A DNA stretch of 64,000 bases, from NCBI GenBank assembly GCA_016207165.1, contig JACQQD010000003.1, positions 47,343-111,342 of the forward strand. Reading direction: 5' to 3'. This document shows positions 30,235-62,044 of the stretch, one piece after another. A model generated the notes under the pieces. That model saw nothing but the letters and a program-made list of their open reading frames with translations, made no database searches and was not told where the DNA came from. Source of the stretch: Candidatus Micrarchaeota archaeon. Its GTDB lineage: Archaea; Micrarchaeota; Micrarchaeia; Norongarragalinales; Norongarragalinaceae. A program made the position numbers and the translations under genes. Numbering within the stretch: the first letter of the stretch is position 1; every line of letters starts with the position of its first letter.

Positions 30235-30255
30235 GAGTAGAAAAAAAATCAACCC
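30235..30255. promoter_or_regulatory. Shared operator copy 1 (pilin promoter)
   Basis: GAGTAGA-AAAAAAA-TCAACCC beside a minus-strand ATAAAT. Confidence 0.6.
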
Positions 30256-30394
30256 AACCGATTTATGCAACGCGCTGAATCGAAGCCACCATCGTCCAAA
30301 ACAACCATAAAAAAAAGTAAGTACTTTAGACAGGTATCTAACGGAAACCCGGCGTATTGGAACGGTGTTTCGAATCCGGCAAGAAACCGGGCAC

Positions 30395-30970
30395 TCAAAC
30401 CGTCAAGGCGAACAACAAAAAGAAGAATGCCAAAAACGTGGACAGCCAAACGCCCTTGTTCCACGCCCACACCTTGGCCCCGTCCAAGACGCCAAACGGC
30501 ACCATGTTAAACGCGCCCAAAAACGCGTTGACGACGGCTCCAAGCAACGCGAATTGCTGCAAGCTCGGCACACTGGCGGCCAACACCAAGAACAGGATCG
30601 CCAACCCCAAATTCATCAAGGGGCCTGCAATGGAAATCTTGCCGACCTGGGCCTTGGAAAGCCTTCCGTGAAAGTAAACGGCACCCGGAGCGGCAAACAC
30701 GAACTGGCCCTGCGTGGCAAAGGCCATCCCAAGCGCCAGAACCAGTCCCAAAGTCCACGCCCGGAAATACGCGGTGGCGCCAAACGAAATGGCCACGTAC
30801 TTGTGCGCCAACTCATGCAAGATAAACCCCAGCCCCACCGTCAAAAGCACGGTGTAAAAATAGTCCACGGAGAATACGTCGTCGCGGAACAACGAGAACG
30901 CCAAGGAAATGGTGATGACGGACACCAGAATGTGCAGCCATTCCTCGGCATCAATGCGAAAACGGGCCAT
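30395..30970 (-). CDS. M50 family (site-2) intramembrane metalloprotease
   Basis: HELAH, AGP..N, FNMVP...LDG. Confidence 0.92.
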   Translation of the reverse strand: MARFRIDAEEWLHILVSVITISLAFSLFRDDVFSVDYFYTVLLTVGLGFILHELAHKYVAISFGATAYFRAWTLGLVLALGMAFATQGQFVFAAPGAVYFHGRLSKAQVGKISIAGPLMNLGLAILFLVLAASVPSLQQFALLGAVVNAFLGAFNMVPFGVLDGAKVWAWNKGVWLSTFLAFFFLLFALTV

Positions 30971-31024
30971 GGGAAATTACTTGGAAACGCAATGGTTTTT
31001 GTGGGTTTTGGAAAAGAAAAACAT

Positions 31025-31441
31025 TCACGCCAGCCGCTCGGTTTCCGTGATCTTGACCGTCGCCGGACTAAACGTTCCCCCGTACGACGTGATTTGGCCT
31101 TCCGCGTGAACCCCGTTGCCGTACACGATCTTGATTCTTTCCCCAACCCGCCCGTCTTCAAGCGCCGTGACGAACAAGACGTCCAACAGCGCCGCGCGCA
31201 CGCCGCCTTCCCGCCGAAACAAGGCCACCATGGAATCGCCTTTCTTGATGCCGCGCACGTGCGGGTACGCAAAAGCCCACACGATGGACAAGCCGATGCC
31301 CAAGGCCAAAAGACGCCACACGTCGGACAAGAATTGAGCGCCGGTAACTCCTCGTTGAACCAAAAAGCCGCTCAAACCAAACAAAATCAGGGCTACGCTT
31401 ACCGAAACGGTCAACGCCTTTCCCAACGCACTGAGGTTCAT
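31025..31441 (-). CDS. Membrane protein with C-terminal beta domain
   Basis: Two TM helices then a beta-rich tail. Confidence 0.7.
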   Translation of the reverse strand: MNLSALGKALTVSVSVALILFGLSGFLVQRGVTGAQFLSDVWRLLALGIGLSIVWAFAYPHVRGIKKGDSMVALFRREGGVRAALLDVLFVTALEDGRVGERIKIVYGNGVHAEGQITSYGGTFSPATVKITETERLA

Positions 31442-31450
31442 GAAAAAGTT

Positions 31451-33577
31451 TCACGCGTACTGCAAGTCTTTTTCGCGTTGCCGCTTCTTCATGAGGATGG
31501 GTGACAGCGTGGACAACGCTTTCTCAAAGTGCTTGGGTTCCACGACTTTCGCGTTGACATTCTCCCGAAGCGCGACCATGGCGGCTTCCCGGCACAACCC
31601 CTCGACGTCGGCTCCGGAAAAGCCGTCCGTAACCTTGGCCAGGTGCCGAACGTCCACTTTGTTCAGCGGCATGGCCTCGGTGTGCACCTTAAAAATGGCC
31701 AGCCGCGTCTCCTCGTCGGGCAACCCGATTTCAATGATCTTGTCAAAGCGGCCCGGCCGAAGCAAAGCGGGGTCAATGATGTCAATGCGGTTGGTGGCGG
31801 CAATCACGACGATTTCCTTGATGTTCTTCAGCCCATCCATTTCCGTCAACAGCGTGTCCACCACGCGGGCGCTCACGTGGGAACCCCCCTCGTCGCCGCC
31901 GCGCACCGGAGCCACGGCGTCCAACTCGTCGATGAAAACGATGGTGGGCGCCGCCAACCGGGCTTTCCGAAATATTTCCCTCAGCCCGCGCTCGCTTTCA
32001 CCGATCCATTTCGAAAGAATCTCCGGGCCCTTGATGGAAATGAAGTTGGCTTCCGCCTCCGTGGCCACGGCCTTGGCCAACATGGTCTTGCCCGTGCCCG
32101 GCGGACCGTAAAGCAGAATGCCTTTCACGGGCCGAATTCCCAACCGCTTGAAGGCCTCCGGCTTTTTGAGCGGCATTTCGACAGCTTCCCGAATCTCGCG
32201 TTTGGCCTCGTCCAATCCGCCGACGTCGCTCCAGCGCACGTTGGGCGCCTCCACGAAAACCTCTCTTAACGCCGAGGGGTGAATCTCGCGAAGCGCATTC
32301 TTCACGTCGTCGCGCGTGACTTTGAGTTCCTCCAAAATGTGGGCGGGAATCTCCTCGTCCTCCAAATTGATCTTCGGTAAAATTCTCCTCAACGCCTTCA
32401 TCGCGGCTTCCTTGACCAACGAATGCATGTCCGCCCCCACAAAGCCATGCGTTTGCGCCGCAATCTCGTCCAACGACACATCCTTGGAAAGCGGCATGCC
32501 GCGCGTGTGAATCTGGAGGATTTCCTTCCGGCTCTTCTTGTCCGGCACGCCAATCTCGATTTCCCGGTCAAACCGCCCCGGCCGCCGCAACGCCGGATCG
32601 ATGGCGTTCTCACGGTTGGTGGCGCCAATGACTACAACTTGCCCACGGCCCTTGAGCCCATCCATGAGCGTGAGAAGCTGGGAAACGATTCTTTTTTCGA
32701 CTTCGCCCACCACTTCCTCCCGCTTGGGGGCCACCGAATCCAGTTCGTCGATGAAAATGATGGACGGCGCGTTCTCCTCGGCTTCATTGAAAATCTGCCT
32801 TAGTCTTTCTTCGGCCTCGCCCACGAATTTGCTGACAATCTCGGGGCCGTTAATCGTAATGAAGTGCGCGTCGGACTCGTTGGCCACCGCCCTGGCCAGA
32901 AGCGTCTTGCCGGTGCCTGGAGGCCCGTACAACAAAACGCCTTTCGGCGGCTCAATGCCCAACCGTTCAAACAATTCCGGGTGGCGCATGGGAAGTTCCA
33001 CCATTTCCCGGATTTTTTGGACTTCCTCCTTGAGGCCGCCGATGTCTTCATACGAAATCGTGGCAATCTTGCCCATTTCCTTGACGGGTTCTTCCTTGAG
33101 AATGAGCTCGGTTTCCGGCGCGACCAACAACAACCCAGCCGGCAACGTTTGGGCGACGACGAACGGAAAAGACGTGCCAAACACGTTGACGCTCAAAATG
33201 TCTCCCTTGCTCAAAGGCTTTCCAATGAGGTTCTTCTTCACGTAAGAGTCAAAACCCGGCGCGTACCGGCTGTTCTGGTTGGGAGCCAACACGATTTTTT
33301 TCGCCGTACGAATCTGGGCTTTCTTGACTTTCACGCGGTCGCCCAAAGCGACGGACGTGTTTTGCCGCAAAATGCCGTCCATGCGCACGATGTTGAGTCC
33401 CTCGTCCTGAGGATGAGCCGGCAGAACCAGGGCGGCGGTGGCTTTCTTGCCCTTGATTTCCACGACGTCGCCCGTCGTCAGACCCAACAATCTTCGAGCG
33501 TTGGAATCCAGCCTTACGACGCGTTTTCCGTAGTCAATCTGCATGGCTTCCGCGACTTTCAACTCCAATTCGTTCAT
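31451..33577 (-). CDS. cdc48: CDC48/VCP family AAA+ ATPase
   Basis: N-domain and two AAA modules, each with GPPGTGKT and RPGRFD. Confidence 0.96.
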
Positions 33578-33657
33578 GATGGTAATAGCCTCCGAAGAAG
33601 TATCTGGCGTCCAATACGTAATAGTCCCAGAACGCTTTTTTAAAGCAACGGTTGCAA

Positions 33658-34152
33658 TCACGTTTTCGGAACGAAAACGCCGGCTTTCCTGTCTTTTTGG
33701 ACGTTTCCCGCCTTGAAGTAGCGGCCATTCATGGCCAAATAGACTCCGGGCGGCAACGTCTGCACGAACGCCAAGGCGGAACCCAAATTGAAGAGCCCGT
33801 CCGAAGAGCCGAACGTAAAAGGAATCATGGCGCCGGTGAGCACCACCGTCTTTCTACTGACTTTCTTGGCCACGGCTTCCGCGGTTTCCGGCATGGTGTC
33901 CGTGCCGTGCGTCACGACAATCCGCTTTTCCTTGGCTGCCTCGCACGCATCGGCCACAGCCTTTCGGTCTTCATCCTTGAAATCCAGGCTATCCTTGAGA
34001 AGCAGGGTTTCAACCTCCACGTCCAAGTGGCAGCGGCCTTCCTTGAGCACCTGCGGCACGTGCGTCTTGGAAAACGAGAGTTTGGCGTGGATTTCATCGT
34101 AAAACTTGTCAAACGTGCCGCCCGTGACGAGAATCTTGATTTTCTCCGTCAT
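33658..34152 (-). CDS. Short L-asparaginase-domain protein
   Basis: TGGTFDK, THGTDTM, TGAMIP, SDGLFN. Confidence 0.88.
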
Positions 34153-35114
34153 TTCTTTTGCCCCGCCAAAACGATTTGCGCCAACAACGCTTCCATTTGG
34201 ATGCGTTCGTCCGCGCCCTCGCTCATCCGGAAAGAATACTCGCCGACTTTGTCAACCAGGTGCACTTTCACGGAATCCGGCAAATCCATGGACACGATTT
34301 CACGGTACACTTGCTTCATGACGTCTTCCCCGGAAAGACCGTACTTGACCATCAACGAATCCAACTGGGTTCGGGCCTCCAAGAAAGAGCCCTTCCACGC
34401 AAGATTCACCATGTCCTGGACTTCCTTGGGCCGCGCCTGCGCGGCCACCTTGTACACGTCGTCTTCCGACACGCTGGACCCCAACACCGACGCGGCTTGA
34501 AGCACGTTGAGCACTTTGCGCGCGTCGCCTTGCGCCATGTGCACCACGGCTTCGGCGGCCCCTTCCCCTAATTTAAGCTTCTCGGCGGCGGCCACTTTTA
34601 ACACCAGCTTCTGCAAGTCTTCTTGCTTGAGCGGCCCAAAACGAAACACGGCGCACCGGCTCTGGATGGGCTCGATGATGCGCGACGAATAATTCGCGTT
34701 CAAAATGAATCGGCACGTTTTGGTGTATTGTTCCATGGTCCGACGCAAGGCTTGTTGAGCATCATTGGTCAACGCGTCGGCTTCATCCAAAAAAATGAGT
34801 TTGAAGGGCACGTCCGCCAACGCCATGGTTCTGGCAAAGTCCTTGATTTTTCCGCGCACCACGTCGATTCCACGTTCATCCGACGCATTCATTTCGTGAA
34901 AGCTGGCACGGTAGTTTTCACCGAAAAGTCCGCGCGCCAACGCCAGGGCCGCGGAAGTTTTGCCCGTGCCTGCCGGGCCCGCAAACAACAGATGCGGAAC
35001 GTTTTTCTGCTCGGCATACGCTTTGAGCCGCTCGACGGCCACGTCCTGGCCCAACACGTCATCCAACGTTTGGGGACGGTATTTTTCCACCCACGGAATG
35101 TAATCGGAATCCAT
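34149..35114 (-). CDS. rfcS: Replication factor C small subunit
   Basis: PWVEKYRP, GPAGTGKT, NASDERG, DEAD, SRC; no intein. Confidence 0.96.
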   Translation of the reverse strand: MDSDYIPWVEKYRPQTLDDVLGQDVAVERLKAYAEQKNVPHLLFAGPAGTGKTSAALALARGLFGENYRASFHEMNASDERGIDVVRGKIKDFARTMALADVPFKLIFLDEADALTNDAQQALRRTMEQYTKTCRFILNANYSSRIIEPIQSRCAVFRFGPLKQEDLQKLVLKVAAAEKLKLGEGAAEAVVHMAQGDARKVLNVLQAASVLGSSVSEDDVYKVAAQARPKEVQDMVNLAWKGSFLEARTQLDSLMVKYGLSGEDVMKQVYREIVSMDLPDSVKVHLVDKVGEYSFRMSEGADERIQMEALLAQIVLAGQKK

Positions 35115-35193
35115 CAACATCAGGAAGGATTTCTGTGGCGTGTTGACCTTAAAAATCAAACGGCTTAAAAACGAGGGCGTCGTCTGGTTAACC

Positions 35194-35514
35194 ATGCTTC
35201 TTTGCACCACGGAAAACCCGCCCGGTCAAAAAATAAGGGACTACAAGGGCGTGGTGTGGGCCTCGGTGGTCCGCTCCAAGCACTTGGGACACGACTTTTA
35301 CGCCGTTTTGAAGAGCCTGAAAGGCGGCGACATCTCCTCGTATCAAAACCTCACCAACCAAGCCCGCGCCGACGTGCTGAAAAAACTGGAGGAAAACGCG
35401 AAAAAGCAGGGCGCCAACGCCGTCGTCGGACTGCAATTCGGCACCACGCAAATCCTCCCATCCACCATTGAAGTCTGGGCGGTAGGAACCGCGGTTACCC
35501 TCGCCAAAAAATAA
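35194..35514 (+). CDS. YbjQ/UPF0145 family protein
   Basis: GG....Y, GANAVVG, GTAV motifs. Confidence 0.88.
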   Translation: MLLCTTENPPGQKIRDYKGVVWASVVRSKHLGHDFYAVLKSLKGGDISSYQNLTNQARADVLKKLEENAKKQGANAVVGLQFGTTQILPSTIEVWAVGTAVTLAKK

Positions 35515-35532
35515 TCCACGGACCAATAAACC

Positions 35533-37296: not shown

Positions 37297-38399
37297 GTCC
37301 GCAACGACGCCGTGAGTTCCCGCCATTTCTCCTGCACGCGGAAAAAGCGTTTGACCTGGGATTCCAAGTCAGGCAAGCACACGTCCTTGAATGAAGTCAA
37401 CGCGAACCTAAAATACTCTTTCTCGATGTCCGAGTCCTCCAATTTCTTGACGGCCTCGTCCAACGGTTTCTGCTGTTGGCGCCGCAACGCAAAGCGTTCC
37501 GGCGAGAACTCATGCAACAGCGTATTTGGCCCCTCGCGGCAAGAACGCGTTACTTGCTCGTCGGTTGGAAGGCGGCCGAACTGCTTTAACGCGTACTCGA
37601 CCGCCAACCCGATGCACGAGCCTTGCACGCCGTCCACGTAATAGTTGACCAGCGTGTCCAACCCGTACTTTTCCGGCTTGTGGAAACCCACCGGTGCTTC
37701 AGGAAGAAACGGTTGGAACGCCTCTTCTTTCGAAAAATACTTGGACAAAGAACAAAACACGCCGTCCTCGATGCGGAAACGCGTCGGAAAAAACGCGTAC
37801 GGCAAAGCCAGTTTCCAGGACACCGCCAGACAACCCGCCTGGTAGCCCTCGACACTGGGCGGCCACTCGTCGGAATACCCGCAAAACGCTTCCCGCAACT
37901 TGACCAGCGCTTCTTTTCTTGAAATGCGGTGCTCGCGGAAATCCGTTAAAGCTCTGGACGCTTTGTCCATCAAAAACGACACGCCGGTGCGGCGGCCCGC
38001 ATACGCGCCCACCACCAACCCGTGGTCGTTTAAGTGCTTGGCAAACCGGGTGAAGAACGGCTCCACGGGCACCACGTCGTCGTCCAAAAACACGACGTTT
38101 TTTTGGCGCTTTACGGCTTCCAGCAACACGGCGTTCCGGGGCCCGCCATAAGGCCCCTCAAACAAGAACCGGTACTCCGCCGCCTGATGATTCAAATACG
38201 TTTTTTCATCCAGGATGGAAACGCCGACGCCATACGGCTTGGCGGCCGCATCGCCGAACATCTGGTTTTCTGCGGCGTGCCCCGACCCATCCACCACCAC
38301 GACTTCCGCGCGAACCCCCTCGCTTTGGAGGGCCTCCAAGACGTTCAGCACGGTGGGCCGCAGGCGGTGGGCGCGATTGGAAACAATGCCGACGATCAT
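37293..38399 (-). CDS. GT-A fold glycosyltransferase-like protein
   Basis: VVVDGS, YGGPRN, FLDDDV, RIED motifs. Confidence 0.65.
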   Translation of the reverse strand: MIVGIVSNRAHRLRPTVLNVLEALQSEGVRAEVVVVDGSGHAAENQMFGDAAAKPYGVGVSILDEKTYLNHQAAEYRFLFEGPYGGPRNAVLLEAVKRQKNVVFLDDDVVPVEPFFTRFAKHLNDHGLVVGAYAGRRTGVSFLMDKASRALTDFREHRISRKEALVKLREAFCGYSDEWPPSVEGYQAGCLAVSWKLALPYAFFPTRFRIEDGVFCSLSKYFSKEEAFQPFLPEAPVGFHKPEKYGLDTLVNYYVDGVQGSCIGLAVEYALKQFGRLPTDEQVTRSCREGPNTLLHEFSPERFALRRQQQKPLDEAVKKLEDSDIEKEYFRFALTSFKDVCLPDLESQVKRFFRVQEKWRELTASLRT

Positions 38400-38956: not shown

Positions 38957-38958
38957 GA

Positions 38959-52542: not shown

Positions 52543-52552
52543 GAGCAACCAC

Positions 52553-53329
52553 TTACGCGGGCACCGGCTCCAATTCGCCGTAACCCTTTTCCTCCAACGC
52601 CAACGCCAATTCAAAGCCCCCGCTTTCCCTGATTTTGCCGTCGACGAACACGTGAACGAAATCCGGCCGAATGTGGTGCAAAATGCGAGGGTAGTGCGTG
52701 ATCAGCAAGACGCCCATGCCGGAGTTCTTAACCAAACCCTGAACGCCTTGAGCCACGACCTTGAGCGCATCCACGTCCAAACCCGAATCCGTCTCGTCCA
52801 TGACCGCGATGTTGGGTTGCAGGACCGCCATCTGCAGGATTTCACAGCGTTTCTTTTCCCCACCACTAAACCCGTCATTCAAATACCGCTCGGCAAACGA
52901 TTCGTCGATGTGAAGCGACTTCATTTTCTCCTTGAGGAACTTGGAAAACGTGAACACGGGCATCTGGTGTTCCTTGGAGCGCAACTGGTTGTACGCCGTC
53001 CGCAAGAAGTTCGCCACCGACACGCCAGGCACCTCCAAGGGGTACTGAAACGCCAAAAACAAGCCTTTCTGGGCACGGCCTTCCGGCGAATCCTCCAAAA
53101 TGCTTTCGCCGTCAAACAAAACGTCGCCAGATTCCACCACGTAGCTGGGATGGCCCATAATCACCGCCGACAACGTGGACTTCCCAGAACCGTTGGGCCC
53201 CATCAAGGCGTGGACTTCTCCAGACTGAACCGTCAGGTTCACGCCGTTGAGTACTTTTTTGCCGTCAACTGACGCCTCGAGGTTCTTGACCTCCAAGACA
53301 TGTTTTTCGGCTTCAAGCTTGATGGCCAT
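52553..53329 (-). CDS. sufC: Fe-S assembly ATPase SufC
   Basis: [25 protein letters not shown]. Confidence 0.96.
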
Positions 53330-53720
53330 GGAAATCCTCCAAACAAATGTCGCAATCCGACGGCACACGCTCTAGCTCGTGGTGAAGCTTGCACAAGTCC
53401 TTGGTCAAGCGGAAGTCCTGCGCCAAATGCTGGAGCGCTTCGTACCCCGACCACGCTTTCGACTCGATTTTGCCACAAGCCTCATTCACCCGCTTCTTAA
53501 ACTCCGCACTGAACGCCACCTTTTGTGCCCGCTTGGAGTGCACGTACTGGGACACCGCCGCTTCCGTAACGCCCAGCAACCCAGCCACCGCCTTCTGCGT
53601 CAAGCCACGTACAATCAACGCCGCCGCCAACTCCCGCCGCAACGCCGGCAACACGTACCAGACTTCGATTTCCTGAGGCAACAACGCCATTTCCGATTTT
53701 AACGCCAGTTTCAAACCCAT
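53313..53720 (-). CDS. HTH regulator with C-terminal Cys/His cluster, first gene of the suf operon
   Basis: LTQKAVAGLLGVTEAAVSQY HTH; CKLH...CDIC. Confidence 0.85.
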   Translation of the reverse strand: MGLKLALKSEMALLPQEIEVWYVLPALRRELAAALIVRGLTQKAVAGLLGVTEAAVSQYVHSKRAQKVAFSAEFKKRVNEACGKIESKAWSGYEALQHLAQDFRLTKDLCKLHHELERVPSDCDICLEDFHGHQA

Positions 53721-53747
53721 CACCGCAACCGGGCCAAACGCCCGCAC

Positions 53748-53761
53748 TTAACAATGGTTAA
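53748..53761. promoter_or_regulatory. Palindromic operator of the suf operon
   Basis: TTAAC-AATG-GTTAA between the minus-strand TTAAAA box and the regulator start. Confidence 0.55.
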
Positions 53762-53801
53762 CTTTCCGGTTTTTAAGGGTTTTTGGCCTATAAAGACCCA
53801 T

Positions 53802-54118
53802 ATGAAATTCAAAAGAAAACCCTGCGGAATCTGCAACACGCCGTTGCACGAATTCAAAGACGAAGTCACCGAAGGCATCCACGTGGACGCCTACCGTTGC
53901 AAGCAAGGGCACGCTAGCTACTCCAGAAGCGTCATGGAAAAAGTGGAGTCTATCCAGAAAGCCACACCGCCCAAGAAAGGCATTTACTGAAAGTAGGCTC
54001 CTCGGTGGCCGCACCCATTCTCGCCTCCATCGTTAAACTACTGGGCCTGAAACCCAAAGAAAAAGTCTACATTTCCACGCAAGACAACAAAATCATCATT
54101 CGGCCTAGCCTGACCTAA
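53802..54118 (+). pseudogene. Frameshifted Zn-finger/AbrB-like antitoxin
   Basis: CGIC...CKQGH frame stops at 53990; another frame continues TAQERHLLKVGSSVAAPI...LGLKPKEKVYI..QDNKIIIRP; shift near GCCACACCGCC (about 53964). Confidence 0.72.
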
Positions 54119-54183
54119 ACTTGAAAAAGACGCAGGAGGGCTTTTACAACCAGAGAATTCGGGGGCAAACCCGCAAAAGGCGG

Positions 54184-54771
54184 TTACGCCAAAGCCTCCT
54201 CCCGCGCCAAACGGCTTTGGCGATGACGCTTGAATTCACAAACGCAAAACTCGACTTCTTCACCGCATTCACACAACGGAGGCTTTTCCTCGAAAGGCGA
54301 CAACTCCTCGGCACTGCCCCAACGCACGACCTCAAATTCACAGTCGCCCCTTTTGACGCACGTGACCGGAACCGGCTCCCGTAATTTGGCTGAGTGGACA
54401 GCAATCAACGCGCCCGTCAAACCCCCCACAAAATACGCGTTTCCAAACCCGTCCCGGAACTTAGAAAATGGATTCAAAAGGCCCAAAAAAGAGTTCGGAG
54501 AAACAAATTGAACCCAGCCCACAAAACACGGTTGGCCATTGATTTTGGCCTTTTGCAACCTGCCTTGACGCCCCGACAACCGCTCAAAAACCGGCACATC
54601 CAAGTCCTCGTCCTGGAACAAGCGCTTGGTTAGAAAACCGGCATGTCGGACGTGAACGGGTGGCTCCGATGAAACGGATGGATCAGACCCGGGTTTGGCG
54701 TCCTTGAATACCTGCCTGGCTTGGCCTTCCAACACGTTCAACAACCCCCTCCCGTTAAAAAGCCCTTCCAA
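54184..54771 (-). CDS. Divergent V4R-like protein with Cys-rich tail
   Basis: GGLTGAL...TCVKRGDCEFEV V4R-like ending, then CEC..CVC; start uncertain. Confidence 0.55.
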   Translation of the reverse strand: MEGLFNGRGLLNVLEGQARQVFKDAKPGSDPSVSSEPPVHVRHAGFLTKRLFQDEDLDVPVFERLSGRQGRLQKAKINGQPCFVGWVQFVSPNSFLGLLNPFSKFRDGFGNAYFVGGLTGALIAVHSAKLREPVPVTCVKRGDCEFEVVRWGSAEELSPFEEKPPLCECGEEVEFCVCEFKRHRQSRLAREEALA

Positions 54772-54775
54772 AAAG

Positions 54776-54811
54776 TCCGATAAATAGCCTGGGTAAAGAA
54801 AAAATCAACCC
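54776..54811. repeat. Direct repeat A containing shared operator copy 2
   Basis: TCCGATAAATAGCCTGGGTAAAGAAAAAATCAACCC; near-identical to 55501-55532. Confidence 0.75.
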
Positions 54812-54877
54812 AAAGTTTAAATGCCAGAAACCCGGAGAGACATTCTCCGCATCATGCAAACGCATAAATCCTGGAAA

Positions 54878-54894
54878 CATTACGAATAGTAATG
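54878..54894. promoter_or_regulatory. Inverted-repeat operator of the RelE-type TA pair
   Basis: CATTAC-GAATA-GTAATG just before the antitoxin ATG. Confidence 0.55.
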
Positions 54895-54901
54895 AACCAT
54901 T

Positions 54902-55147
54902 ATGAAAAACATCAACGTGCGGGTGGACGAGTACGCTGACCGGGTGCTGGACGTCTTCCGTGCCGCCCGCGGACTGAACAACAAGTCGGAAGCATTCAAC
55001 GAATTGGTCCACGAGTTCGGGCCCAAGATTTTGGAACCGGAACTCAACGAGGAATTCGCGAAAACCGTCCTGGCCGAAACGCAGGCATGGGAAAAAAAAC
55101 ACGGCTCCCGGCGCAAAATGACCTTGGACGAACTGGAAAAACCGTGA
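54902..55147 (+). CDS. Antitoxin (DUF2683/RHH-like)
   Basis: INVRVDEY.DRVL...GL.NKSEA, EPELNEEF; directly upstream of the toxin. Confidence 0.78.
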   Translation: MKNINVRVDEYADRVLDVFRAARGLNNKSEAFNELVHEFGPKILEPELNEEFAKTVLAETQAWEKKHGSRRKMTLDELEKP

Positions 55148-55151
55148 GTCC

Positions 55152-55427
55152 ATGTTCGAATTCGATTTGTCGGACGCGCTCCGCCAAACCCTGGAGGAAT
55201 TGAAGCAACGGGACAAGAAACTGGCCGAAGCCCTCACCAGAAAAATCCGAGAAATCGTTTCACGTGACGTGCAAACCATCGACTATTACAAGAACCTCCG
55301 GACCCCACTCCAAGAATCCAAGCGCGTGCACGTCGGCCGCTTCGTTTTGATCTTCAAAGTCTACAAAGAGAAAAACTTCATCTTGTTCCAACGCTTTGAA
55401 CACCACGACAAAGCGTACCAGCTTTAA
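55152..55427 (+). CDS. RelE/YafQ-family toxin
   Basis: YKNLR.PL...KRVHVG.FVLIF...FEHHDKAY. Confidence 0.85.
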   Translation: MFEFDLSDALRQTLEELKQRDKKLAEALTRKIREIVSRDVQTIDYYKNLRTPLQESKRVHVGRFVLIFKVYKEKNFILFQRFEHHDKAYQL

Positions 55428-55500
55428 AACATCTAAAACAGGGTTCTGCTCCACCGGTCGGGAAACTCTCTTGGTTTGCTATAACGCTACCCTCGCGAAA

Positions 55501-55532
55501 TCCGATAAATAGCCAGGGTAAAAAATCAACTC
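55501..55532. repeat. Direct repeat B containing shortened operator copy 3
   Basis: TCCGATAAATAGCCAGGGTAAAAAATCAACTC; spacer 4 nt shorter than in repeat A. Confidence 0.75.
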
Positions 55533-55541
55533 GCATTTAAA

Positions 55542-56363
55542 CTACTTGAAGTAAGCGAGAGTTTCTTCCCGGATTTGCTCCGCCAACGCCGCATTCTTGG
55601 TGGCCACCACGGAAACGGGGTGCTCCCAAGAGAAAATGTGGCGGTACAGGCCGCCCAAATTCAAAGATCCAGAATTCCCGGACTCGTACAACCCGTCCAA
55701 CGCCATCTTCAGCTCTGGCGCCAAGAACAATTGGATGACGCGGTCCTCTGACACCATGACGTTGGCCGACGAAGCACAGTCCACATCCAATTCCACGTTA
55801 GAGCCGAATTCCTTCCAAAAATTCATCAATAATTTGTCCAACTTCGAGTGGCCACGGCACAACACGTAATGGGGATTGGATTGCAAGAATTTTTTCATGG
55901 GAGCGTAATGCTCTCGGGCCACGGCAATGGAGGGACACGCCCGGTACCAGTGAGAGACCAACGGCGAGGCATAATCATGCAATTCGTAATCCTGGCGCAA
56001 CGCCCCCAGCAACGCGTACAAGGATTCAGCGTACGAGGAAAACGTAACGGAAAAAGAGTCCAAATCCCGTTTGAGCCGTTCCAACTCCAACCTTGGCAGG
56101 TTCTTCGGCGCCGACAACGACTCGGCCTGCCGCCGCGTTTCGTACACCCAATCCAAACTCAACGCGTACTGCTTCCGGGCTTCCACCAAAGCGCCGGCGG
56201 CCAAGAGCTTCTTGACGGCCTTGTTCACTTCCGGGTATGTCACCACCCCCTCGTCACGGCGCAAATGCGAATGCAGTTTCCGGACAGTCAACGGCCACTC
56301 CGAAGACAAAACGTCCAAAACCCTGGACCGCACGTCATCCTCCGAACCCAAAAAAGAATGCAA
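55542..56363 (-). CDS. Winged-helix regulator with C-terminal domain (paralog 1)
   Basis: VLSSEWPLTVRKLH...TYPEVNKAVKKL...G.L...YALSLDW; ends IREETLAYFK. Confidence 0.8.
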   Translation of the reverse strand: MHSFLGSEDDVRSRVLDVLSSEWPLTVRKLHSHLRRDEGVVTYPEVNKAVKKLLAAGALVEARKQYALSLDWVYETRRQAESLSAPKNLPRLELERLKRDLDSFSVTFSSYAESLYALLGALRQDYELHDYASPLVSHWYRACPSIAVAREHYAPMKKFLQSNPHYVLCRGHSKLDKLLMNFWKEFGSNVELDVDCASSANVMVSEDRVIQLFLAPELKMALDGLYESGNSGSLNLGGLYRHIFSWEHPVSVVATKNAALAEQIREETLAYFK

Positions 56364-56398
56364 CCAAGACCCACCCCCGCATTCAACGCCTAAACGGC

Positions 56399-57253
56399 TT
56401 ACTTGAAGTACTTCAACGTCTCCCCACGAATCTCGTCGGCTAACTCTGGATTGCTGGTAATAATCAAAGACACGTTTCCTTTGAGGCCGTACACAAACGA
56501 GTACAAAGCCGCAAAGTCTATTTGACCTTCATCACTTTTTTTGAAAACCGAGTTTATCCCTTTCCGGACGGGAGGTGAAAGGAAAAGCTGGACTACTTTG
56601 TCTCGCGTGACAAGCAAATCACAGCTGGTTGCGCAGCTCACCCCAATATGGACCTTTTTTCCTAAATCTTTCCAGAAGTCAGCCAAAACCGAATCCAATG
56701 CGGTTTGCTGATTGATGACTGCATAGTGTTCGCCAAGAGACATCATGCGTCGTAGTTGTTCAAATTCTTTCTTGGAAACGCAAGTAACCGGCCAAGCATG
56801 GTACCAGTGCGCTACAGTGGTGTCGGGTTCTTTGTTTTCCGAATAGTCGCGATCCATATTGTCCAAAAGCGCGTACAAAGCTTCCATATACGAGTCAAAT
56901 GACAATGTCACCGAGGAAGCGTTCTTTATTTCTCCAAACTCAAGTGCCGCCCTCCCACTTCGTTTGGCCTCCATCTTGTTAACAAAGGAATTCAAGTCCG
57001 TAATCCATTTCTGGTCCAAAACGTATTTTCGCTTGTCTTCAATCAAAACGCCTTGTCCCGTGAGAACCCGAAGCGCCTTGTGCACGCCCTGATACGTCGC
57101 CGGAGAACCGAAGTCCTTCTTGATAGTTTGAAAAACCTGTTTGGCGGAAAGATGCTCTTCCCGCGACAACACCAAGATGACCAAGTCCTTGATTTCCGAC
57201 TTGGAAGCCGAAAACGAGCTGACACGAGAGGCTAACACGACAGCAACCTCCAA
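56399..57253 (-). CDS. Winged-helix regulator with C-terminal domain (paralog 2)
   Basis: VLSREEHLSAKQVF...TYQGVHKALRVL...GVL...YVLDQKW; ends IRGETLKYFK. Confidence 0.8.
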   Translation of the reverse strand: MEVAVVLASRVSSFSASKSEIKDLVILVLSREEHLSAKQVFQTIKKDFGSPATYQGVHKALRVLTGQGVLIEDKRKYVLDQKWITDLNSFVNKMEAKRSGRAALEFGEIKNASSVTLSFDSYMEALYALLDNMDRDYSENKEPDTTVAHWYHAWPVTCVSKKEFEQLRRMMSLGEHYAVINQQTALDSVLADFWKDLGKKVHIGVSCATSCDLLVTRDKVVQLFLSPPVRKGINSVFKKSDEGQIDFAALYSFVYGLKGNVSLIITSNPELADEIRGETLKYFK

Positions 57254-57394
57254 GACCGTAAAAACCCAGAAAAAAGGCTAAAAAGGCCGTTGAACCTTCT
57301 CCGGACCAACGGCAACACGTCAAGACGGATTAACCCTCCCTGCATCGGCCTTCTCTCCTGAAGAGAGGCTTTCAGACAGTTTAATATAAACCTT

Positions 57395-57415
57395 GAGTTG
57401 ATTTTTTGTATACCG
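57395..57415. promoter_or_regulatory. Shared operator copy 4 (KaiC-prenyltransferase-V4R promoter)
   Basis: GAGTTGA-TTTTTTG-TATACCG, 4 nt after TATAAA (57385-57390). Confidence 0.6.
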
Positions 57416-57477
57416 TTCCCTCGCTATCTGTCGAAGAGATATAAAAGGGAAACGGGCATGAAAGAGTTGGCCGGTAA

Positions 57478-58239
57478 ATGGGAGAACGTAAGAAAACAGG
57501 TATCTCAGGGCTTGACAAAGCACTTAATGGAGGGATACCAAACGGGAACATAGTGTTGATTTCTGGTGGAGCAGGCACTGGGAAAACAACGCTATGTCTT
57601 CAATTTTTGGTAGAAGGGGCAAAAAATGGGGAAAAAACGCTATACATAAGCACCGAACAAAACGACGGAGAAATAAAACGCCAAGCTGAGCCATACGGGT
57701 GGCAAATAGCAGAACTTGAAGAAAAAAACTTGTTCAAAGTGCTGCACGTTAATATCTTGAAAGATGAAGATAATCTAGAAAAAATAAAAAAAACAATTGA
57801 AGAGCTTAAGCCAGAACGGATAGTTCTTGATTCTTTAAGTACATACTCAGACTACACTGCGGTAACACAATACGCAAGAGAACTCCTTTTAAAACGTGGC
57901 GGGGTCGCTCAGAGAGCTATAGATCAAATCATGCCTCAAAACATATCAGAAAAAGTAATCATAAAGCGAATGCTAGCAACACTAATAAATGACCTGAAAA
58001 GCCCCGGCGCAACGACACTAATCACATCGGAGTTACCCGAAACAAAAGGCCAGCTAAGCTCCGATGGAATTTCAGAATTCTTAGCAGACGGGGTCATATT
58101 GCTGTACTATTGGGAAATTGGCGAAGTAGAAGAACATGCAATGAAGATAAGGAAAATGAGGTACACCCCTCACGATTCTAGAGCGTTAATGTACAACATG
58201 AGCCGAAGTGGTATAGAAGTAAAAGCAGGAGAAATCTGA
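57478..58239 (+). CDS. Single-domain KaiC-like (RAD55/GvpD) ATPase
   Basis: TGISGLD, GGAGTGKTT, LDSL, EFLADGVI.L, IRKMR. Confidence 0.9.
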   Translation: MGERKKTGISGLDKALNGGIPNGNIVLISGGAGTGKTTLCLQFLVEGAKNGEKTLYISTEQNDGEIKRQAEPYGWQIAELEEKNLFKVLHVNILKDEDNLEKIKKTIEELKPERIVLDSLSTYSDYTAVTQYARELLLKRGGVAQRAIDQIMPQNISEKVIIKRMLATLINDLKSPGATTLITSELPETKGQLSSDGISEFLADGVILLYYWEIGEVEEHAMKIRKMRYTPHDSRALMYNMSRSGIEVKAGEI

Positions 58240-58913
58240 TGGAAAACACTAATAGTCTAAAACACGTGTTTGTTATTCCCGATGGAAACAGACGCTGGGC
58301 GAGAGAGAACAAAAAGACATACAAAGAGGTCTACGAGAAGGTCGCCATGGAAATTACGCCGAACTTAATTGAAGAGGTCTTACTAAAACAGGGAGTTCAA
58401 GAACTAACAATATTCATGCTTTCACGAAGTAACTTGATAAAACGAAGTCTTGACGAAGTACTACCTATTCTAAAGGCCCAAGAAAGACTATACGGCTGGA
58501 TTTCAGAAAATAAGGTGATGCAGAAATCGGGGGCTAGTTTTAAAGTAATTGGAGACAAGACGCTCCTGCCAAGATCATACTTAGATGCCTGTGAGAGATT
58601 AGAAAAAATTAACCATGGGAAAAAAAAGTGTAATTTTCTGGTCGGATACGATGCTGAATGGGAGCTACTCCAAGCAGTCAAAAAAATCGAGAGAATCGAA
58701 AGCGCAGACATTGTAAAAGAGCTAGCTCTAAACTCTGAAATTGATTTAATGATTAGAACGGGATTTGAGCACAGAATTTCGGGCGGCCCACTAATACAGC
58801 TGAAATTTGCAGAGTTAGTTTTCTGTGATTTTCACTACCCAGAATTGACTCGGAAAAAAATTCAGGAGATAATTAAACAATACGGAAAAAAGGAAAGGCG
58901 ATTCGGAAGATGA
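58239..58913 (+). CDS. Divergent cis-prenyltransferase (UppS fold)
   Basis: HVFVIPDGNRRWA, DLMIRTG.E.RIS, AEL.F. Confidence 0.85.
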   Translation: MENTNSLKHVFVIPDGNRRWARENKKTYKEVYEKVAMEITPNLIEEVLLKQGVQELTIFMLSRSNLIKRSLDEVLPILKAQERLYGWISENKVMQKSGASFKVIGDKTLLPRSYLDACERLEKINHGKKKCNFLVGYDAEWELLQAVKKIERIESADIVKELALNSEIDLMIRTGFEHRISGGPLIQLKFAELVFCDFHYPELTRKKIQEIIKQYGKKERRFGR

Positions 58914-59476
58914 TGGAATTTCTACAAAAACTATTAATGATGCGGCAGTTCCAAATGGGTAAAGGCAGAACGACAATACTGGGTCAGAGAGTGCTACTGG
59001 GACCAGTAGAAATACTCGTACCGGCAACACAATTAGCAATAGACCAACCATTAGAAGGGGCAAAAATATACGAAAAGGTTAGAACAACATTTAATGAGGG
59101 TTGGTCGGAAGCAGTAAGAAAAATGTACGGTATAAAGTCTCAAGACTATTTTAAATTCTTAATAGATATGTCAAATCTCGGAGGGTGGGGCGATGGCAAG
59201 TTAATCGAATTCGAACCAGCCACACTCGAAGGTAAATTCATTAACTACAATACGGCAATGGCAGAGTATTTCAAAGGAAAAACAAGCAGACCAGTAGACC
59301 ATATTTGGAGAGGATTGGCCGCAGGGGGGCTTACTAAAGCTTTTAAGACAGAAATAGACTGGTTTGAAACTAAATGCATCGCATGCGGCGAAGATAGATG
59401 CGAATACATTTTTAAACCAAGAAAAAAATTCGAGGAAAATAGAATAAAAGAAATAGAATACCAAATACCAATATAA
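58910..59476 (+). CDS. V4R-domain protein
   Basis: GGWG, PVDHIWRG..AG, ETKCIACGEDRCEYI. Confidence 0.85.
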   Translation: MMEFLQKLLMMRQFQMGKGRTTILGQRVLLGPVEILVPATQLAIDQPLEGAKIYEKVRTTFNEGWSEAVRKMYGIKSQDYFKFLIDMSNLGGWGDGKLIEFEPATLEGKFINYNTAMAEYFKGKTSRPVDHIWRGLAAGGLTKAFKTEIDWFETKCIACGEDRCEYIFKPRKKFEENRIKEIEYQIPI

Positions 59477-59478
59477 CG

Positions 59479-60027
59479 CTAGAACTGAAGCGGCAGAGGT
59501 TGATTCGGGAAACTTGAGGAAATTGGCGACCAATAATTGAAAAAGGCACGCGACAGCTTTTGCCAATTATGATTACGATGCGCTAGGCGAATTTCGAAAA
59601 ACATAGTGAAAGTAGACCTAGCAACTAAGATTGGCCTAAACAGACCAAATTTGAAGTAATGTTCAAGTAGCAAATTTAGTAAAATGCTAAACAAATTAGA
59701 ATGGCGATATGCTCGAATCCAGCCCACACGGAATTGCACAGATGCAGTTTCCTGACCTAACAAGTTATGTGCCGAGACAAATTCGTTTTTGATTTTAGAA
59801 TAGTAATAATCTTCCCGCGTTGAATCACCAGACAACTGGCAATTTCTAGCTAAATCTGCATATTGAAAAGTTTTCAAGACGTGTCTCGAAGCACCGACGG
59901 CTTTTTTTCTTGGAAAGCCTAATATAACTAAAAAGGAAACGCAACACGCTAACAACTCAGGCCACTTTTTTTCGTCATGAAACCTCCAAAGATTGGAATG
60001 CAATTTTCCGATTTGAAATAATTTCAT
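59479..60027 (-). CDS. Hypothetical protein in the AT-rich island
   Basis: 182-aa ORF following kaiC-2; W/H-rich helical pattern. Confidence 0.65.
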   Translation of the reverse strand: MKLFQIGKLHSNLWRFHDEKKWPELLACCVSFLVILGFPRKKAVGASRHVLKTFQYADLARNCQLSGDSTREDYYYSKIKNEFVSAHNLLGQETASVQFRVGWIRAYRHSNLFSILLNLLLEHYFKFGLFRPILVARSTFTMFFEIRLAHRNHNWQKLSRAFFNYWSPISSSFPNQPLPLQF

Positions 60028-60036
60028 AAAAAGAGC

Positions 60037-60783
60037 CTAACCAAACCCACTAACTTTCTTTACGTGCAAGCCCTGTTCCGTGATGTCAAAAGGATGCGTT
60101 TCCAAGCTGTGCTTGGTGCCCCGCATTTTTCGGACGTAGAGGGTGCGGGCGGCCTGCTGACCCATGCTTAAGAAGTTCAATAGAACCACGCCATCCGCGA
60201 CGTATTCTTCGACGCCGTATTTGGAGAACTTGACGGGTTCGTCTCCACTGGCTTCCGGCAATTCCGTGGTGACGATGGAACTCATGCCGGATTTGGTGAG
60301 GACTTGGCTGACGCGGAGGATGGCTCGCCGGATTTCGTTCTCGTTTTCCAGTTGGAAGCCCAAGGCGGGAATGGAGTCAATCACGAGGCGTTTGGCGCCG
60401 ATGCGCCGCGCAATGCCTAAAACGTCGGTTAAGACGCGGTTCACGTCCAACTGGTTGGCGGCCAAGGCGTGGTGTTCGCTTGAAGGAGTTCCGGCGCGGG
60501 CGGAGGCGCCGTCCACGATGGCAAACAAGTTGTGGCGTTCCAACTCTTGGAGGTTCCATCCGAAGCGAAGCATGTCGGAGCGGATGTTCTCCGGGGATTC
60601 GTCGAACGTCACGAAGACGCCGGGTTCCTGGTGCTGGGTCACGCCGTTGTAGAGGAATTGCATGGAGAAGATGCTTTTGCCGGTGCCGCATGCCCCAGCA
60701 ACAAGCATGGTGCGGTTCTTGGGGAAACCGCCTTCAATGAGGTCGTCAAGGCCCGGAATGCCGGTGGGCGCGCGTTCAACCAT
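60037..60783 (-). CDS. Single-domain KaiC-like ATPase
   Basis: TGIPGLD, GACGTGKS, IDSI, VEEYVADGV, VRKMRGTKHS. Confidence 0.92.
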   Translation of the reverse strand: MVERAPTGIPGLDDLIEGGFPKNRTMLVAGACGTGKSIFSMQFLYNGVTQHQEPGVFVTFDESPENIRSDMLRFGWNLQELERHNLFAIVDGASARAGTPSSEHHALAANQLDVNRVLTDVLGIARRIGAKRLVIDSIPALGFQLENENEIRRAILRVSQVLTKSGMSSIVTTELPEASGDEPVKFSKYGVEEYVADGVVLLNFLSMGQQAARTLYVRKMRGTKHSLETHPFDITEQGLHVKKVSGFG

Positions 60784-60810
60784 ACGGGGAAAGGAACGAG
60801 GGCCAAGCGC

Positions 60811-61512
60811 TTAAATCTTTTGGTTTAGCGCCTTGGAAAGGCCTTGGAACAGGTTTTCGTGCGTCAAGGAAAGCCACCCGTTTTTGCGGCAGGCGCGCTT
60901 GAGGCCGGGGCCGGCATTAAGCGCTATGGGTAATCCGACTTGTTCCATCATTTGTTCGTCCAAGACCATGTCACCAAAGCACAGGCTTTCATGCAAATCG
61001 ATTCCGTGGTGGTGTGCGTACGTCAAAACAGCCCACTTTTTTTGTGCGGGGTCCGTCAAGTTGTGCACGATTCGGCCAGTAAAGCGGCCGTTCTTGGTTT
61101 TCAGGCGGGTTCCGTAGGCGGCGGCAAAGCCCAGGGATTCGGTGAAGGGTTCCACCACGTCTTGAAAGGCGCCGGACACGGCCACCAACCTAAAGTGTTT
61201 CTTCTTCAGTATGGAAAGCAGTTTTTTGGTGTACGGATAAAAATTCGCGTGCTCGGATTGCAGGAACAACTGGTTCAGGGCCTTGAATTTCCGGACTTGA
61301 GTGCCTTTCAGGGAAGAAACGATAAGGGAAACGAGTTTCTGGGTGGTTTCAAGCTCGGTCAAGTGGTGTTTCTTGTGTTCCGAGTGGATGCGGTGCATGG
61401 CGGCCAATTGGCGGGCGTTGAACACGCCGTGTTCGGCTAGGAAATGCAGGTACTTGGGAATCGTGTTTTCCTGGAGAAGCGTGCCGGTCACGTCAAAGAA
61501 AGCGGCTTTCAT
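60811..61512 (-). CDS. HAD-IB family hydrolase
   Basis: FFDVTGTL, VSG, K, FGD...D..M. Confidence 0.85.
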   Translation of the reverse strand: MKAAFFDVTGTLLQENTIPKYLHFLAEHGVFNARQLAAMHRIHSEHKKHHLTELETTQKLVSLIVSSLKGTQVRKFKALNQLFLQSEHANFYPYTKKLLSILKKKHFRLVAVSGAFQDVVEPFTESLGFAAAYGTRLKTKNGRFTGRIVHNLTDPAQKKWAVLTYAHHHGIDLHESLCFGDMVLDEQMMEQVGLPIALNAGPGLKRACRKNGWLSLTHENLFQGLSKALNQKI

Positions 61513-61553
61513 GGGTGAGTTGAACGAAAAAGAGGTATTTCAAGCCAGTGGGT

Positions 61554-61892
61554 CTAAACGGGTTCAATGACGATTTTGTGGCCGAGCTTGGTGACTTTGA
61601 CTTCGTCGCCGGCTTTTAGCTTCAGTTGGCGTTCCAAATCAGAGGGAATGCGGAAGACCAGGGAGTTTCCGACTTCCGAGAGCGTGCGGTACAACGTCAA
61701 AGGCTCCGGCCAAACACCCAAACGCCGCGCCAATTCAATGGTGCGCTGGGACTCCTTTTCAAAAGGAAACTCTTGACCGCAATTCGAACAGCGCTCGCCT
61801 TTCTCCACGAAAACGTAGCCGCCGATTTCAGACACGATGTTGTCGGTTTTTCCCAGTCGGCCCGTGTTGCAGGCCGGGCATTTTTTGGTCAT
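61554..61892 (-). CDS. Zn-finger/AbrB-like protein (orphan antitoxin-like)
   Basis: CPAC...CSNCG then VGNSLVFRIP..L...LKLKAGDEV. Confidence 0.82.
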   Translation of the reverse strand: MTKKCPACNTGRLGKTDNIVSEIGGYVFVEKGERCSNCGQEFPFEKESQRTIELARRLGVWPEPLTLYRTLSEVGNSLVFRIPSDLERQLKLKAGDEVKVTKLGHKIVIEPV

Positions 61893-61996
61893 TTTCAGTC
61901 AATTTCGGGGATAACGAGTGAATTTCATCCGTGATAAAGATTGGGCAGAACAAGTAGAAAAAGAAGGGGGGAGGGTCAGGAGGAGCGTGAAACTGG

Positions 61997-62016
61997 GGAG
62001 GGGGTGCACCCCCTCC
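61997..62016. repeat. Perfect 20-bp GC-rich palindrome
   Basis: GGAGGGGGTGCACCCCCTCC. Confidence 0.85.
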
Positions 62017-62023
62017 GCGGTTC

Positions 62024-62044
62024 CGGTTGACCTTTTTTCTACCC
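62024..62044. promoter_or_regulatory. Shared operator copy 5
   Basis: CGGTTGA-CCTTTTT-TCTACCC, 5 nt from a minus-strand TTAAAG. Confidence 0.55.

Follow-up and report, generated by a model that had tools for sequence, protein, structure and literature searches.

According to excerpts of a published account (PMC4158304), archaeal regulators of the TrmB family bind inverted repeats such as TATCAC-N5-GTGATA, which lie upstream of the transcription factor B recognition element (BRE) and TATA box where the regulator activates and downstream of them where it represses; the same excerpts describe Y50, a tyrosine in the helix-turn-helix of TrmB, as important for DNA recognition, and give a length of 264 amino acids (aa) for TrmBL2. 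TFB-RF1 (PF1088) of Pyrococcus furiosus activates from a site adjacent to BRE by recruiting TFB, as described in excerpts of two accounts (PMC5937170, PMC4158304). The present analysis concerns a palindromic element of Candidatus Micrarchaeota archaeon (source genome G000, an assembly of 1.27 Mb with 56% GC), five copies of which lie in the 64,000-nt stretch of DNA analysed here (G000:C3:47343-111342, the window), one of them before a pilin gene and four of them beside two paralogous genes for winged helix-turn-helix (wHTH) proteins. We consider it rather likely that a dimeric winged-helix regulator binds this element, that the element abuts the BRE and TATA box of ~14 promoters, and that it is read by the adjacent paralogs.

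Archaellum regulators of the EarA/ArnR type bind short repeats upstream of the BRE and TATA box of filament operons and are required for their transcription, the same logic as that of the upstream site at the pilin promoter described here, with different proteins and motifs. The Thermococcales glycolytic motif (TGM), the site of TrmBL1/Tgr, has in common with the present element a 6-N5-6 inverted repeat at promoters and, judged by fold, a candidate binder of the same architecture. It differs in half-site (GTWGAW here), in lineage (Micrarchaeota here) and in targets, which are genes of sugar metabolism in the Thermococcales and cell-surface and toxin-antitoxin genes here, and the binder here is a candidate only, without a match to PF01978. 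TrmBL2 and TrmB (5bpd, 3qph) combine, like the second of the two paralogs (wHTH-2), a winged helix, a long helix and a C-terminal domain resembling phospholipase D (PLD), and TrmBL2 is of similar length, if the figure in the excerpts is taken (264 aa versus ~275 aa here); however, template-modelling (TM) scores against wHTH-2 are only 0.27-0.36 and identities 10-13%, and TrmBL2 is a chromatin protein on coding and intergenic DNA, whereas the site here is specific. The site of TFB-RF1, as excerpted, lies beside BRE just as the core of the element abuts BRE, but TFB-RF1 acts at promoters with a weak BRE, and the motif promoters here are not weaker than average. Regulation of the TrmB type through promoter palindromes is already known; the present lineage and protein family are not described in the papers that a full-text literature search listed. 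That search listed no paper on promoter motifs in Micrarchaeota, which is the sole basis for calling the element undescribed.

The element and its position in promoters

A sequence-only reading of the window had proposed a five-copy operator, each copy intergenic and 3-5 nt downstream of a TATA-like hexamer, that ties the pilin cluster to a KaiC/V4R locus through the adjacent wHTH paralogs. All five copies (s1-s5) are present where they had been placed, all of them in intergenic DNA by both the open reading frame (ORF) list and the gene calls, and each with a TATA-like hexamer 3-5 nt away. They are given below on the strand that carries the T-run, with scores from a position weight matrix (PWM) trained on these five sites:

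30235-30255, minus strand: s1, GGGTTGATTTTTTTTCTACTC; right arm with one mismatch to TYTACCC; 35.2 bits; hexamer ATAAAT
54791-54811, minus strand: s2, GGGTTGATTTTTTCTTTACCC; 34.9 bits; precedes a 195-aa ORF; hexamer TTTAAA
55516-55532, minus strand: s3, GAGTTGATTTTTTACCC; 17 nt, 4 nt less than s2 in the alignment; hexamer TTTAAA
57395-57415, plus strand: s4, GAGTTGATTTTTTGTATACCG; right arm with two mismatches; 32.8 bits; between wHTH-2 and kaiC1; hexamer TATAAA
62024-62044, plus strand: s5, CGGTTGACCTTTTTTCTACCC; left arm with one mismatch; 30.4 bits; hexamer TTAAAG, on the other side as compared with s1-s4

These copies belong to a motif family that exceeds chance. At 20 bits or more the PWM matched the genome 11 times, against a mean of 1.05 (maximum 4) in 20 simulated order-3 Markov genomes, and seven of the 11 matches were non-training sites on other contigs, all but one between called genes. 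With each site left out of the training in turn, s1, s2, s4 and s5 ranked 4th, 7th, 9th and 10th among 2,537,518 positions. An 18-mer consensus (GTTGATTTTTTTTCTACC), scanned at up to three mismatches, gave 14 sites in G000 and 18 and 21 in its congeners G001 and G002, respectively, whereas the reversed pattern gave 1, 1 and 3. The strict palindrome GTWGAW-N5-WTCWAC, to which the core of s1 (GTTGAT-TTTTT-TTCTAC) conforms, was found at 80 sites in a wider comparison set of 41 genomes, against 22 for its reversed control. The comparison with simulated genomes excludes chance as the origin of the matches, and the element is a real regulon element, of which the mechanism and the scope are revised: the description as five-copy is right within the window but not for the genome, which has 14 sites within three mismatches, and in place of a five-site regulon of pilin and KaiC genes there are at least 14 sites, many of them before genes for antitoxins, membrane proteins and secreted proteins.

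Elsewhere in the order, in further genera and families, the half-sites are kept around the spacers TGCAG, TGTGG, TTCAA, TCGCC, TCGGC, TTGAG and TTTCG; with spacers such as TGCAG, TGTGG, TCGCC, TTGAG and TTTCG, a TATA box again comes next, and then a start codon at +37 to +41. Since the half-sites recur with spacers that are not T-rich, the conserved core is the 6-N5-6 inverted repeat GTWGAW-N5-WTCWAC, and the T-run, which is largely specific to the genus, is not its functional part. Several families of the order have conserved the element, which in four genera is tied to pilin genes.

Its placement relative to genes was evaluated in G000, G001 and G002 on 51 distinct sites, each in the orientation of the T-run, after two of the 39 G001/G002 sites, both low-complexity T-runs, had been left out. 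Over 444 genes of the genome, TATA-like hexamers begin 28-34 nt ahead of the ATG and a second A/T-rich patch lies at -10 to -5, a pattern typical of mRNAs with no leader or almost none; general promoters (263 of 543 aligned) have an A-rich BRE but no conserved sequence upstream of it, so that the element is specific to a subset of promoters. An A/T-rich box stands 4-5 nt after the element, counted as an A/T-rich 8-mer that starts 3-8 nt after it, at 42 of the 51 sites (720 of 1979 random intergenic positions), and an ATG that opens an ORF of at least 40 aa lies at +33 to +37 at 16 of the 51 (83 of 1979 random positions, and 0 of 51 on the opposite strand), a distance that fits the general leaderless TATA-to-ATG spacing of the genome. 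For divergent genes on the opposite strand, ATG codons at +33 to +56 were in no clear excess (12/51 versus 371/1979 random). Immediately past the element, positions +1 to +4 are AA-N-G, as in the general BRE, and a T/A-rich box comes next; the same succession of inverted repeat and BRE/TATA is seen in G013, G025, G033 and G038. As in the TGM, then, an inverted repeat lies directly upstream of BRE and TATA at a fixed distance. The core spans about -53 to -37 from the start codon and abuts BRE, which is the position of archaeal activator sites and not that of an operator. The earlier claim of a typical repressor position is doubtful, because the clustering of start codons at +33 to +37 agrees with the box that follows the element; a TATA box that precedes the element and drives the target is not what the family as a whole displays. 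The hexamers before s1-s4 are nonetheless real, at these four sites the repressor position may yet hold, and a second promoter, repressible or divergent, is possible at some sites.

The features around s1 are as follows:

30009-30200, minus strand: pilin gene, 63 aa, class III signal peptide; PF04021 E = 0.0069, below the cut-off
30223-30230, minus strand: T-rich box CTTTTCAC, 4 nt after s1, starting 30 nt before the pilin ATG
30261-30266, minus strand: TATA-like hexamer ATAAAT, 5 nt before s1; the plus strand beyond it has no called gene

The pilin is 70-79% identical to its G001 and G002 orthologs, of which that of G001 is above the PF04021 cut-off. Its ATG lies 35 nt after s1, the canonical spacing, and, with TATA boxes 28-34 nt before ATG in this genome, the gene fits the box beyond the element, so that the element stands upstream of BRE and TATA; the box CTTTTCAC sits where a functional TATA box of this genome lies and would presumably act as one. 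The distance from element to pilin ATG is again +35 in G001, +36 in G002 and +56 in G038, which belongs to a different family. In upstream regions of pilin genes the palindrome occurs with at most one mismatch in 6 of 30 genomes, where 0.24 were expected from the rest of the same loci, and with at most two mismatches in 8 of 30, where 2.6 were expected. The excess of 6/30 over 0.24 makes the link to the pilus real and older than the genus; that link is one part of a mixed regulon.

Candidate regulators and their linkage to the element

The two paralogs lie between s3 and s4:

55542-56363, minus strand: wHTH-1, 273-aa ORF, candidate TrmB-like regulator
56399-57253, minus strand: wHTH-2, 284-aa ORF, candidate TrmB-like regulator

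They are 31% identical to each other. In Pfam the two window proteins had no match at E <=0.01 and none at a family cut-off, and PF01978 matched none of 22 aligned members of their family, even at E <=1; in the same library a canonical TrmB encoded on contig C7 of G000 scored 45.2 bits. Sequence searches of Pfam and the PDB with the paralogs gave only sub-threshold matches to winged-helix proteins (Fur, BlaI, MarR). An AlphaFold2 model of wHTH-2, made from the 22-sequence alignment, has a predicted local distance difference test score of 85.5, and its Foldseek matches at ranks 1-9 are chains of TrmBL2 and TrmB, the best being TrmBL2 (5bpd_C, E = 2.9e-9) and TrmB (3qph_A, E = 2.8e-5); the TM scores given above are low, and the remaining matches, to PLD-fold proteins, cover the C-terminal domain only. 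VIA-align gave Z scores of 10-12 for the winged helix (up to 11.9, with 64 residues aligned at a root-mean-square deviation of 1.3) and of 10.2-10.3 for the PLD fold (129-147 aligned). The modelled wHTH-2 has the architecture of TrmB, with winged helix, linker helix and PLD-like effector domain. Two residues, Y54 in a T/S-Y-Q motif and K59, are invariant in the 22 members, and Y54 may be the counterpart of Y50 of TrmB. The paralogs belong to a large, unnamed family, TrmB-like in its predicted fold, that has no Pfam model: it comprises 2229 cluster representatives at E <=0.001, the nearer homologs are annotated as hypothetical, and a homolog at locus L091 of a relative is 61% identical to wHTH-2. 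Genes of the family often stand in arrays of 2-4 within a genome, and some members have 445-644 aa with two or three matched stretches, so that tandem-fused forms of the regulator exist.

Homologs of the family (E <=0.001) were found in 17 of the 41 genomes, and at least 6 of these 17, counted among the cases listed, have a strict palindrome no more than 200 nt from the homolog, against ~0.1 expected by arithmetic from the tables; a single site of G039 is outside this count. The distances are 85 nt in G001, 60 nt in G002, 72 nt in G022 (where only the N-terminal domain is homologous), 45 nt in G023 (its only site), 135 nt in G025 and 14 nt in G030 (one of two sites). Three of the four G025 sites are within 4 kb of the homolog, and three of 14 G000 sites are within 5 kb of the wHTH pair (P = 2.7e-4). 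In G001, G002, G023 and G030 the site comes after the homolog's stop codon and in the same orientation, as does s3 in G000, 9 nt past the stop codon of wHTH-1; a third half-site, ATCAAC, stands 5-6 nt before the site in G001, G002 and G023, and in G030 too, where it partly overlaps the stop codon. Across the 41 genomes the number of motifs correlates positively with the presence of the paralog family, a correlation that is confounded by kinship and was not used as a test. A heterodimer of wHTH-1 and wHTH-2 was considered as the cause of the unequal half-sites; G023 has the same unequal site beside a single detected homolog. The proposal that the paralogs are the regulators keeps its force in that fold and linkage (6/17; 3/14) make them credible binders, and the products of 55542-57253 are the best candidates to bind the element, which their family most likely reads.

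Around the wHTH-linked copies in other genomes, the ~250-nt gaps that follow the motif in G001, G002, G023 and G030 hold no gene longer than the short ORF named next. At locus L061 of G001, ~100-215 nt after the motif beside the wHTH genes, there is a 37-aa ORF (MSVRKKSRRVFVRDKR...) preceded by GGAGGAAGG, with an FVRDK motif as in the C-termini of VapB-like antitoxins that follow other copies of the motif.

Target genes and neighbouring features

The element is conserved before orthologous genes. Its targets in G000 are the pilin operon, an operon for a TrbC/VirB2-like pilin, the genes for a 1139-aa secreted protein and for a membrane protein with DUF6498, antitoxin genes that have PIN-domain genes as partners, and the gene for a membrane protein that has no Pfam match and carries a GAGDAK motif, which we take to be typical of prepilin peptidases. 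The TrbC/VirB2-like protein has 79 aa (PF04956 E = 2.6e-4, below the cut-off), its gene starts at +49, +47 and +52 after the motif in the three congeners, and genes for membrane proteins follow it. In G000 this operon (C11:16397-18361, L100) encodes, beside the 79-aa protein, membrane proteins of 314 and 262 aa; it is kept together with the motif in G001 and G002, and may constitute a conjugation-like or DNA-transfer pilus system. A secreted protein of >650 aa is shared by motif promoters of G000 and G002 (31% identity, E = 6e-79). The targets in G001 and G002 include HicB, MazE/AbrB and FitA-like antitoxins, DUF192 and DUF5678 proteins, a PLD-like protein and a HAD hydrolase; those beyond the genus include, in G033, a T2SSE ATPase (PF00437 E = 1.1e-36, ATG at +38), in G025 proteins of the CARDB and radical-SAM kinds, and in G013 a secreted protein longer than 500 aa.

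The genes and features around the other four copies in the window are:

54184-54771, minus strand: 195-aa ORF after s2, likely start 54732-54744; no Pfam match
54902-55427, plus strand: toxin-antitoxin cassette, 81-aa protein and 91-aa ParE-like protein; PF05016 E = 0.0082, below the cut-off
57478-58239, plus strand: kaiC1, KaiC-like ATPase; PF06745 E = 4.5e-56; TATA box ATATAAAA at 57439-57446
61554-61892, minus strand: AbrB/MazE-like gene, 112 aa; C-terminal AbrB/MazE domain, PF04014 E = 7.7e-8
61970-62022, plus strand: G-rich hairpin repeat that abuts s5; 94% match at G000 C1:164793-164843
62095-62631, minus strand: gene for a conserved membrane protein, its 3' end flanking s5

Site s2 has CTATTTAT 4 nt downstream, followed by a G-rich GGGAGGGGG stretch and by TTG and GTG codons at +47 to +56. 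The 195-aa ORF that it precedes has orthologs in G001 and G002; this gene had been called V4R-like, and it has no detectable similarity to the V4R protein encoded nearby at 58910-59476 (E = 18). The ParE-like cassette lies between s2 and s3 on the opposite strand, with a TATA-like box of its own (CATAAATC) 33 nt before the ATG, and ~50 bp that carry s2 and s3 (54773-54823 and 55500-55541) are duplicated on its two flanks; s3, which has no gene downstream, is a shortened duplicate of the s2 region. On contig C11 of G000, direct duplicates of ~37 bp with the motif copies C11a (18410-18430) and C11b (19191-19211) likewise flank a cassette, of antitoxin and PIN genes. The flanking copies suggest either that a promoter is duplicated when a cassette is inserted or that insertion targets the motif.

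Site s4 lies 62 nt before kaiC1, a gene with a separate TATA box 31 nt ahead of its ATG. The site borders an island of low GC (39-43%, versus 56% for the genome) and has no counterpart scoring at least 13 bits in the syntenic blocks of G001 and G002; on the opposite strand it reads motif-AAGGT-TTATATTAAA toward wHTH-2, the ORF of which starts 141 nt away. Of the proposed link between pilin and KaiC/V4R genes, the part that stands is that a shared element joins the pilin promoter to the wHTH locus. The tie to KaiC is weak, because of the TATA box that kaiC1 has for itself, the place of s4 at the edge of the island and the lack of a counterpart in the congeners. The island (57000-60000) comprises kaiC1, a gene resembling undecaprenyl diphosphate synthase genes, the V4R gene and an opposing 182-aa ORF; the gene caller trained on this genome rejected its genes, and it looks horizontally acquired.

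Site s5 has the AbrB/MazE-like gene on one side, with a HAD gene beyond it, and on the other the 3' end of the gene for the membrane protein, toward which the site points in the canonical direction in G000; counterparts with a similar right flank exist in G001 (CGGTTGAACTTTTCTCTACCT) and G002 (CAGTTGATTTTTTTTCTACCA). The 112-aa AbrB/MazE-like protein, encoded between s5 and the HAD gene, has an N-terminal part resembling a zinc ribbon (CxxC...CxxC), and no counterpart of its gene was found at the same place in G002. The hairpin at 61970-62022 is followed by GCGGTTC, and similar hairpins precede motif copies in G002 (L047, L048, L089); metagenome contigs (four DNA runs of one study, mapped onto the region) have raised depth and many loose ends there, as a multi-copy repeat would. 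A distinct family of ~65-nt hairpin repeats, with the core GGGAAACTTTCTTGGTTTGCTATAAC and an inverted partner upstream, has 13 intergenic copies in G000, of which one in the window (55460-55486) places one arm at the 3' end of the ParE-like cassette. None of the metagenome contigs spans the ParE-like cassette or the low-GC island, though such contigs cannot show absence. For 53000-62900, none of the sequencing runs listed is recorded as RNA, which is evidence in neither direction. An Rfam scan of window positions 29000-64000 found no family, a tRNA scan found none, and a search for related loci over the genome contigs returned two loci only.

Proposed mode of action, rival explanations and significance

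In the proposed mechanism, a dimeric winged-helix regulator would dock on GTWGAW-N5-WTCWAC, which in this genus has a T-run as its spacer. The core would abut the BRE and TATA box of promoters that mostly give leaderless mRNAs, and TFB and TBP would be the targets of the bound protein, which would most likely help to recruit them (activation) and less likely block BRE (repression). The regulon would comprise ~14 promoters, those of the pilin, the TrbC/VirB2-like pilin, the GAGDAK membrane protein, large secreted proteins, several toxin-antitoxin operons and the regulator locus itself. Binding, the sign of regulation and the starts of transcription are to be read as predictions from motif, geometry, fold and linkage.

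Several observations weigh against this mechanism. The textbook spacing is found at only s1 of the five window sites: s2 requires a short leader, s4 is as far from kaiC1 as stated above, and no gene lies downstream of s3 or s5 in the canonical direction. Gene starts come from a crude gene caller trained on this genome. A/T-rich 8-mers are mildly enriched on the opposite strand too (26/51 versus 36% at random). The BRE/TATA scores of motif promoters are not weaker than those of general promoters (median 6.8 versus 3.3, P = 0.13), so that nothing in promoter strength speaks for a need of an activator, and the preference for activation over occlusion of BRE is drawn from position and analogy only. 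Three genomes, G033 (97% complete), G007 (93%) and G027 (90%), have canonical sites and no detected member of the paralog family, in a search that recovered the G000 and G030 members as positive controls. Finally, the palindrome is met at canonical TrmB genes: that on C7 of G000 ends inside a perfect palindrome, and that of G008 (C115:7629-8363, L115; PF01978 E = 1.2e-14) has a palindrome, GTTGAACAATATTCTAC, between its own TATA box and ATG, 3 nt after the former and 4 nt before the latter, which is a textbook autorepressor layout.

These last cases bear on who the binder is. Canonical TrmB could be the binder, and the possibility that the site is a regulator site as proposed but belongs to a canonical TrmB (PF01978) or to another regulator, and not to the adjacent paralogs, deserves some, if minor, credence: PF01978 homologs are present in 36 of the 41 genomes, including the three in which no paralog was detected, and the C7 and G008 genes have the palindrome at hand. 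However, the palindrome adjoins a TrmB gene in 2 of 36 genomes, as opposed to 6 of 17 for the paralog family, and the C7 case could be chance, the site there also preceding a VapB-like gene, a common type of target. The G008 arrangement, TATA followed by palindrome and ATG, also speaks for the repression model of the sequence-only reading, in which the operator lies 3-5 nt downstream of the target's TATA box and the bound regulator blocks RNA polymerase. So do the TATA-like hexamers 3-5 nt before s1-s4 and before 8 of 15 G000 sites, and the placing of repressor sites of the TrmB family downstream of BRE/TATA in the excerpted account (PMC4158304). This model is nevertheless improbable. It would give the pilin mRNA a leader of ~36 nt, though the TATA-to-ATG spacing of the genome implies leaderless mRNAs; an upstream box of this kind is absent from the pilin promoter of G001; start codons at +33 to +37 (16/51) match the box on the other side, and boxes on the side that the model needs are only mildly enriched.

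Two further explanations were weighed. The T-run might be the oligo-T terminator of the preceding gene, standing before the next promoter, with flanks conserved by common descent only; the runs are indeed of 6-8 T, and about five of 15 G000 sites (s1, s3, C11a, C11b and the C7 site) follow a co-directional gene within 140 nt. With a divergent gene on the upstream side at 9 of the 15, and with half-sites kept in other genera around spacers that are not T-rich, the terminator is contradicted as a sole explanation, and we regard it as very unlikely. Least credible of all is that small gene cassettes recombine or insert at the element. Its layout, a central spacer flanked by inverted arms, may be likened to that of recombinase core sites, and direct copies flank both the ParE-like cassette (s2/s3, ~50 bp in common) and the antitoxin-PIN cassette (C11a/C11b, ~37 bp in common). 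Yet no recombinase gene or domain was found among the neighbouring genes scanned at either cassette, an att site would not be expected to keep a fixed spacing to TATA and ATG, and duplication of a promoter during insertion would explain the flanking copies equally well; nor does any metagenome contig from the four runs span the ParE-like cassette, with the limit on such contigs already given. The dimeric regulator that abuts BRE and TATA is the explanation we retain.

DPANN archaea, for the most part uncultured and dependent on host contact, are a group for which, to our knowledge, almost nothing is known of gene regulation. The analysis yields a defined 17-bp site, a fixed promoter geometry, a short list of targets (pili and surface proteins) and two candidate regulators, and with these the control of host attachment becomes testable with purified protein and metatranscriptomes, without culture. 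It also brings to light a large family of TrmB fold that is missing from current domain libraries. As a tentative and speculative extension, there might be an order-wide switch in Micrarchaeota, in which the PLD-fold domain of this TrmB-fold family senses a small molecule, possibly one of the host's, and the regulator turns on surface apparatus and resident toxin-antitoxin modules through the GTWGAW-N5-WTCWAC site abutting BRE. If this were true, the type IV pilin, the T2SSE ATPase, the TrbC/VirB2-like pilin and the adhesin-like secreted proteins would form a set for host contact and DNA transfer.

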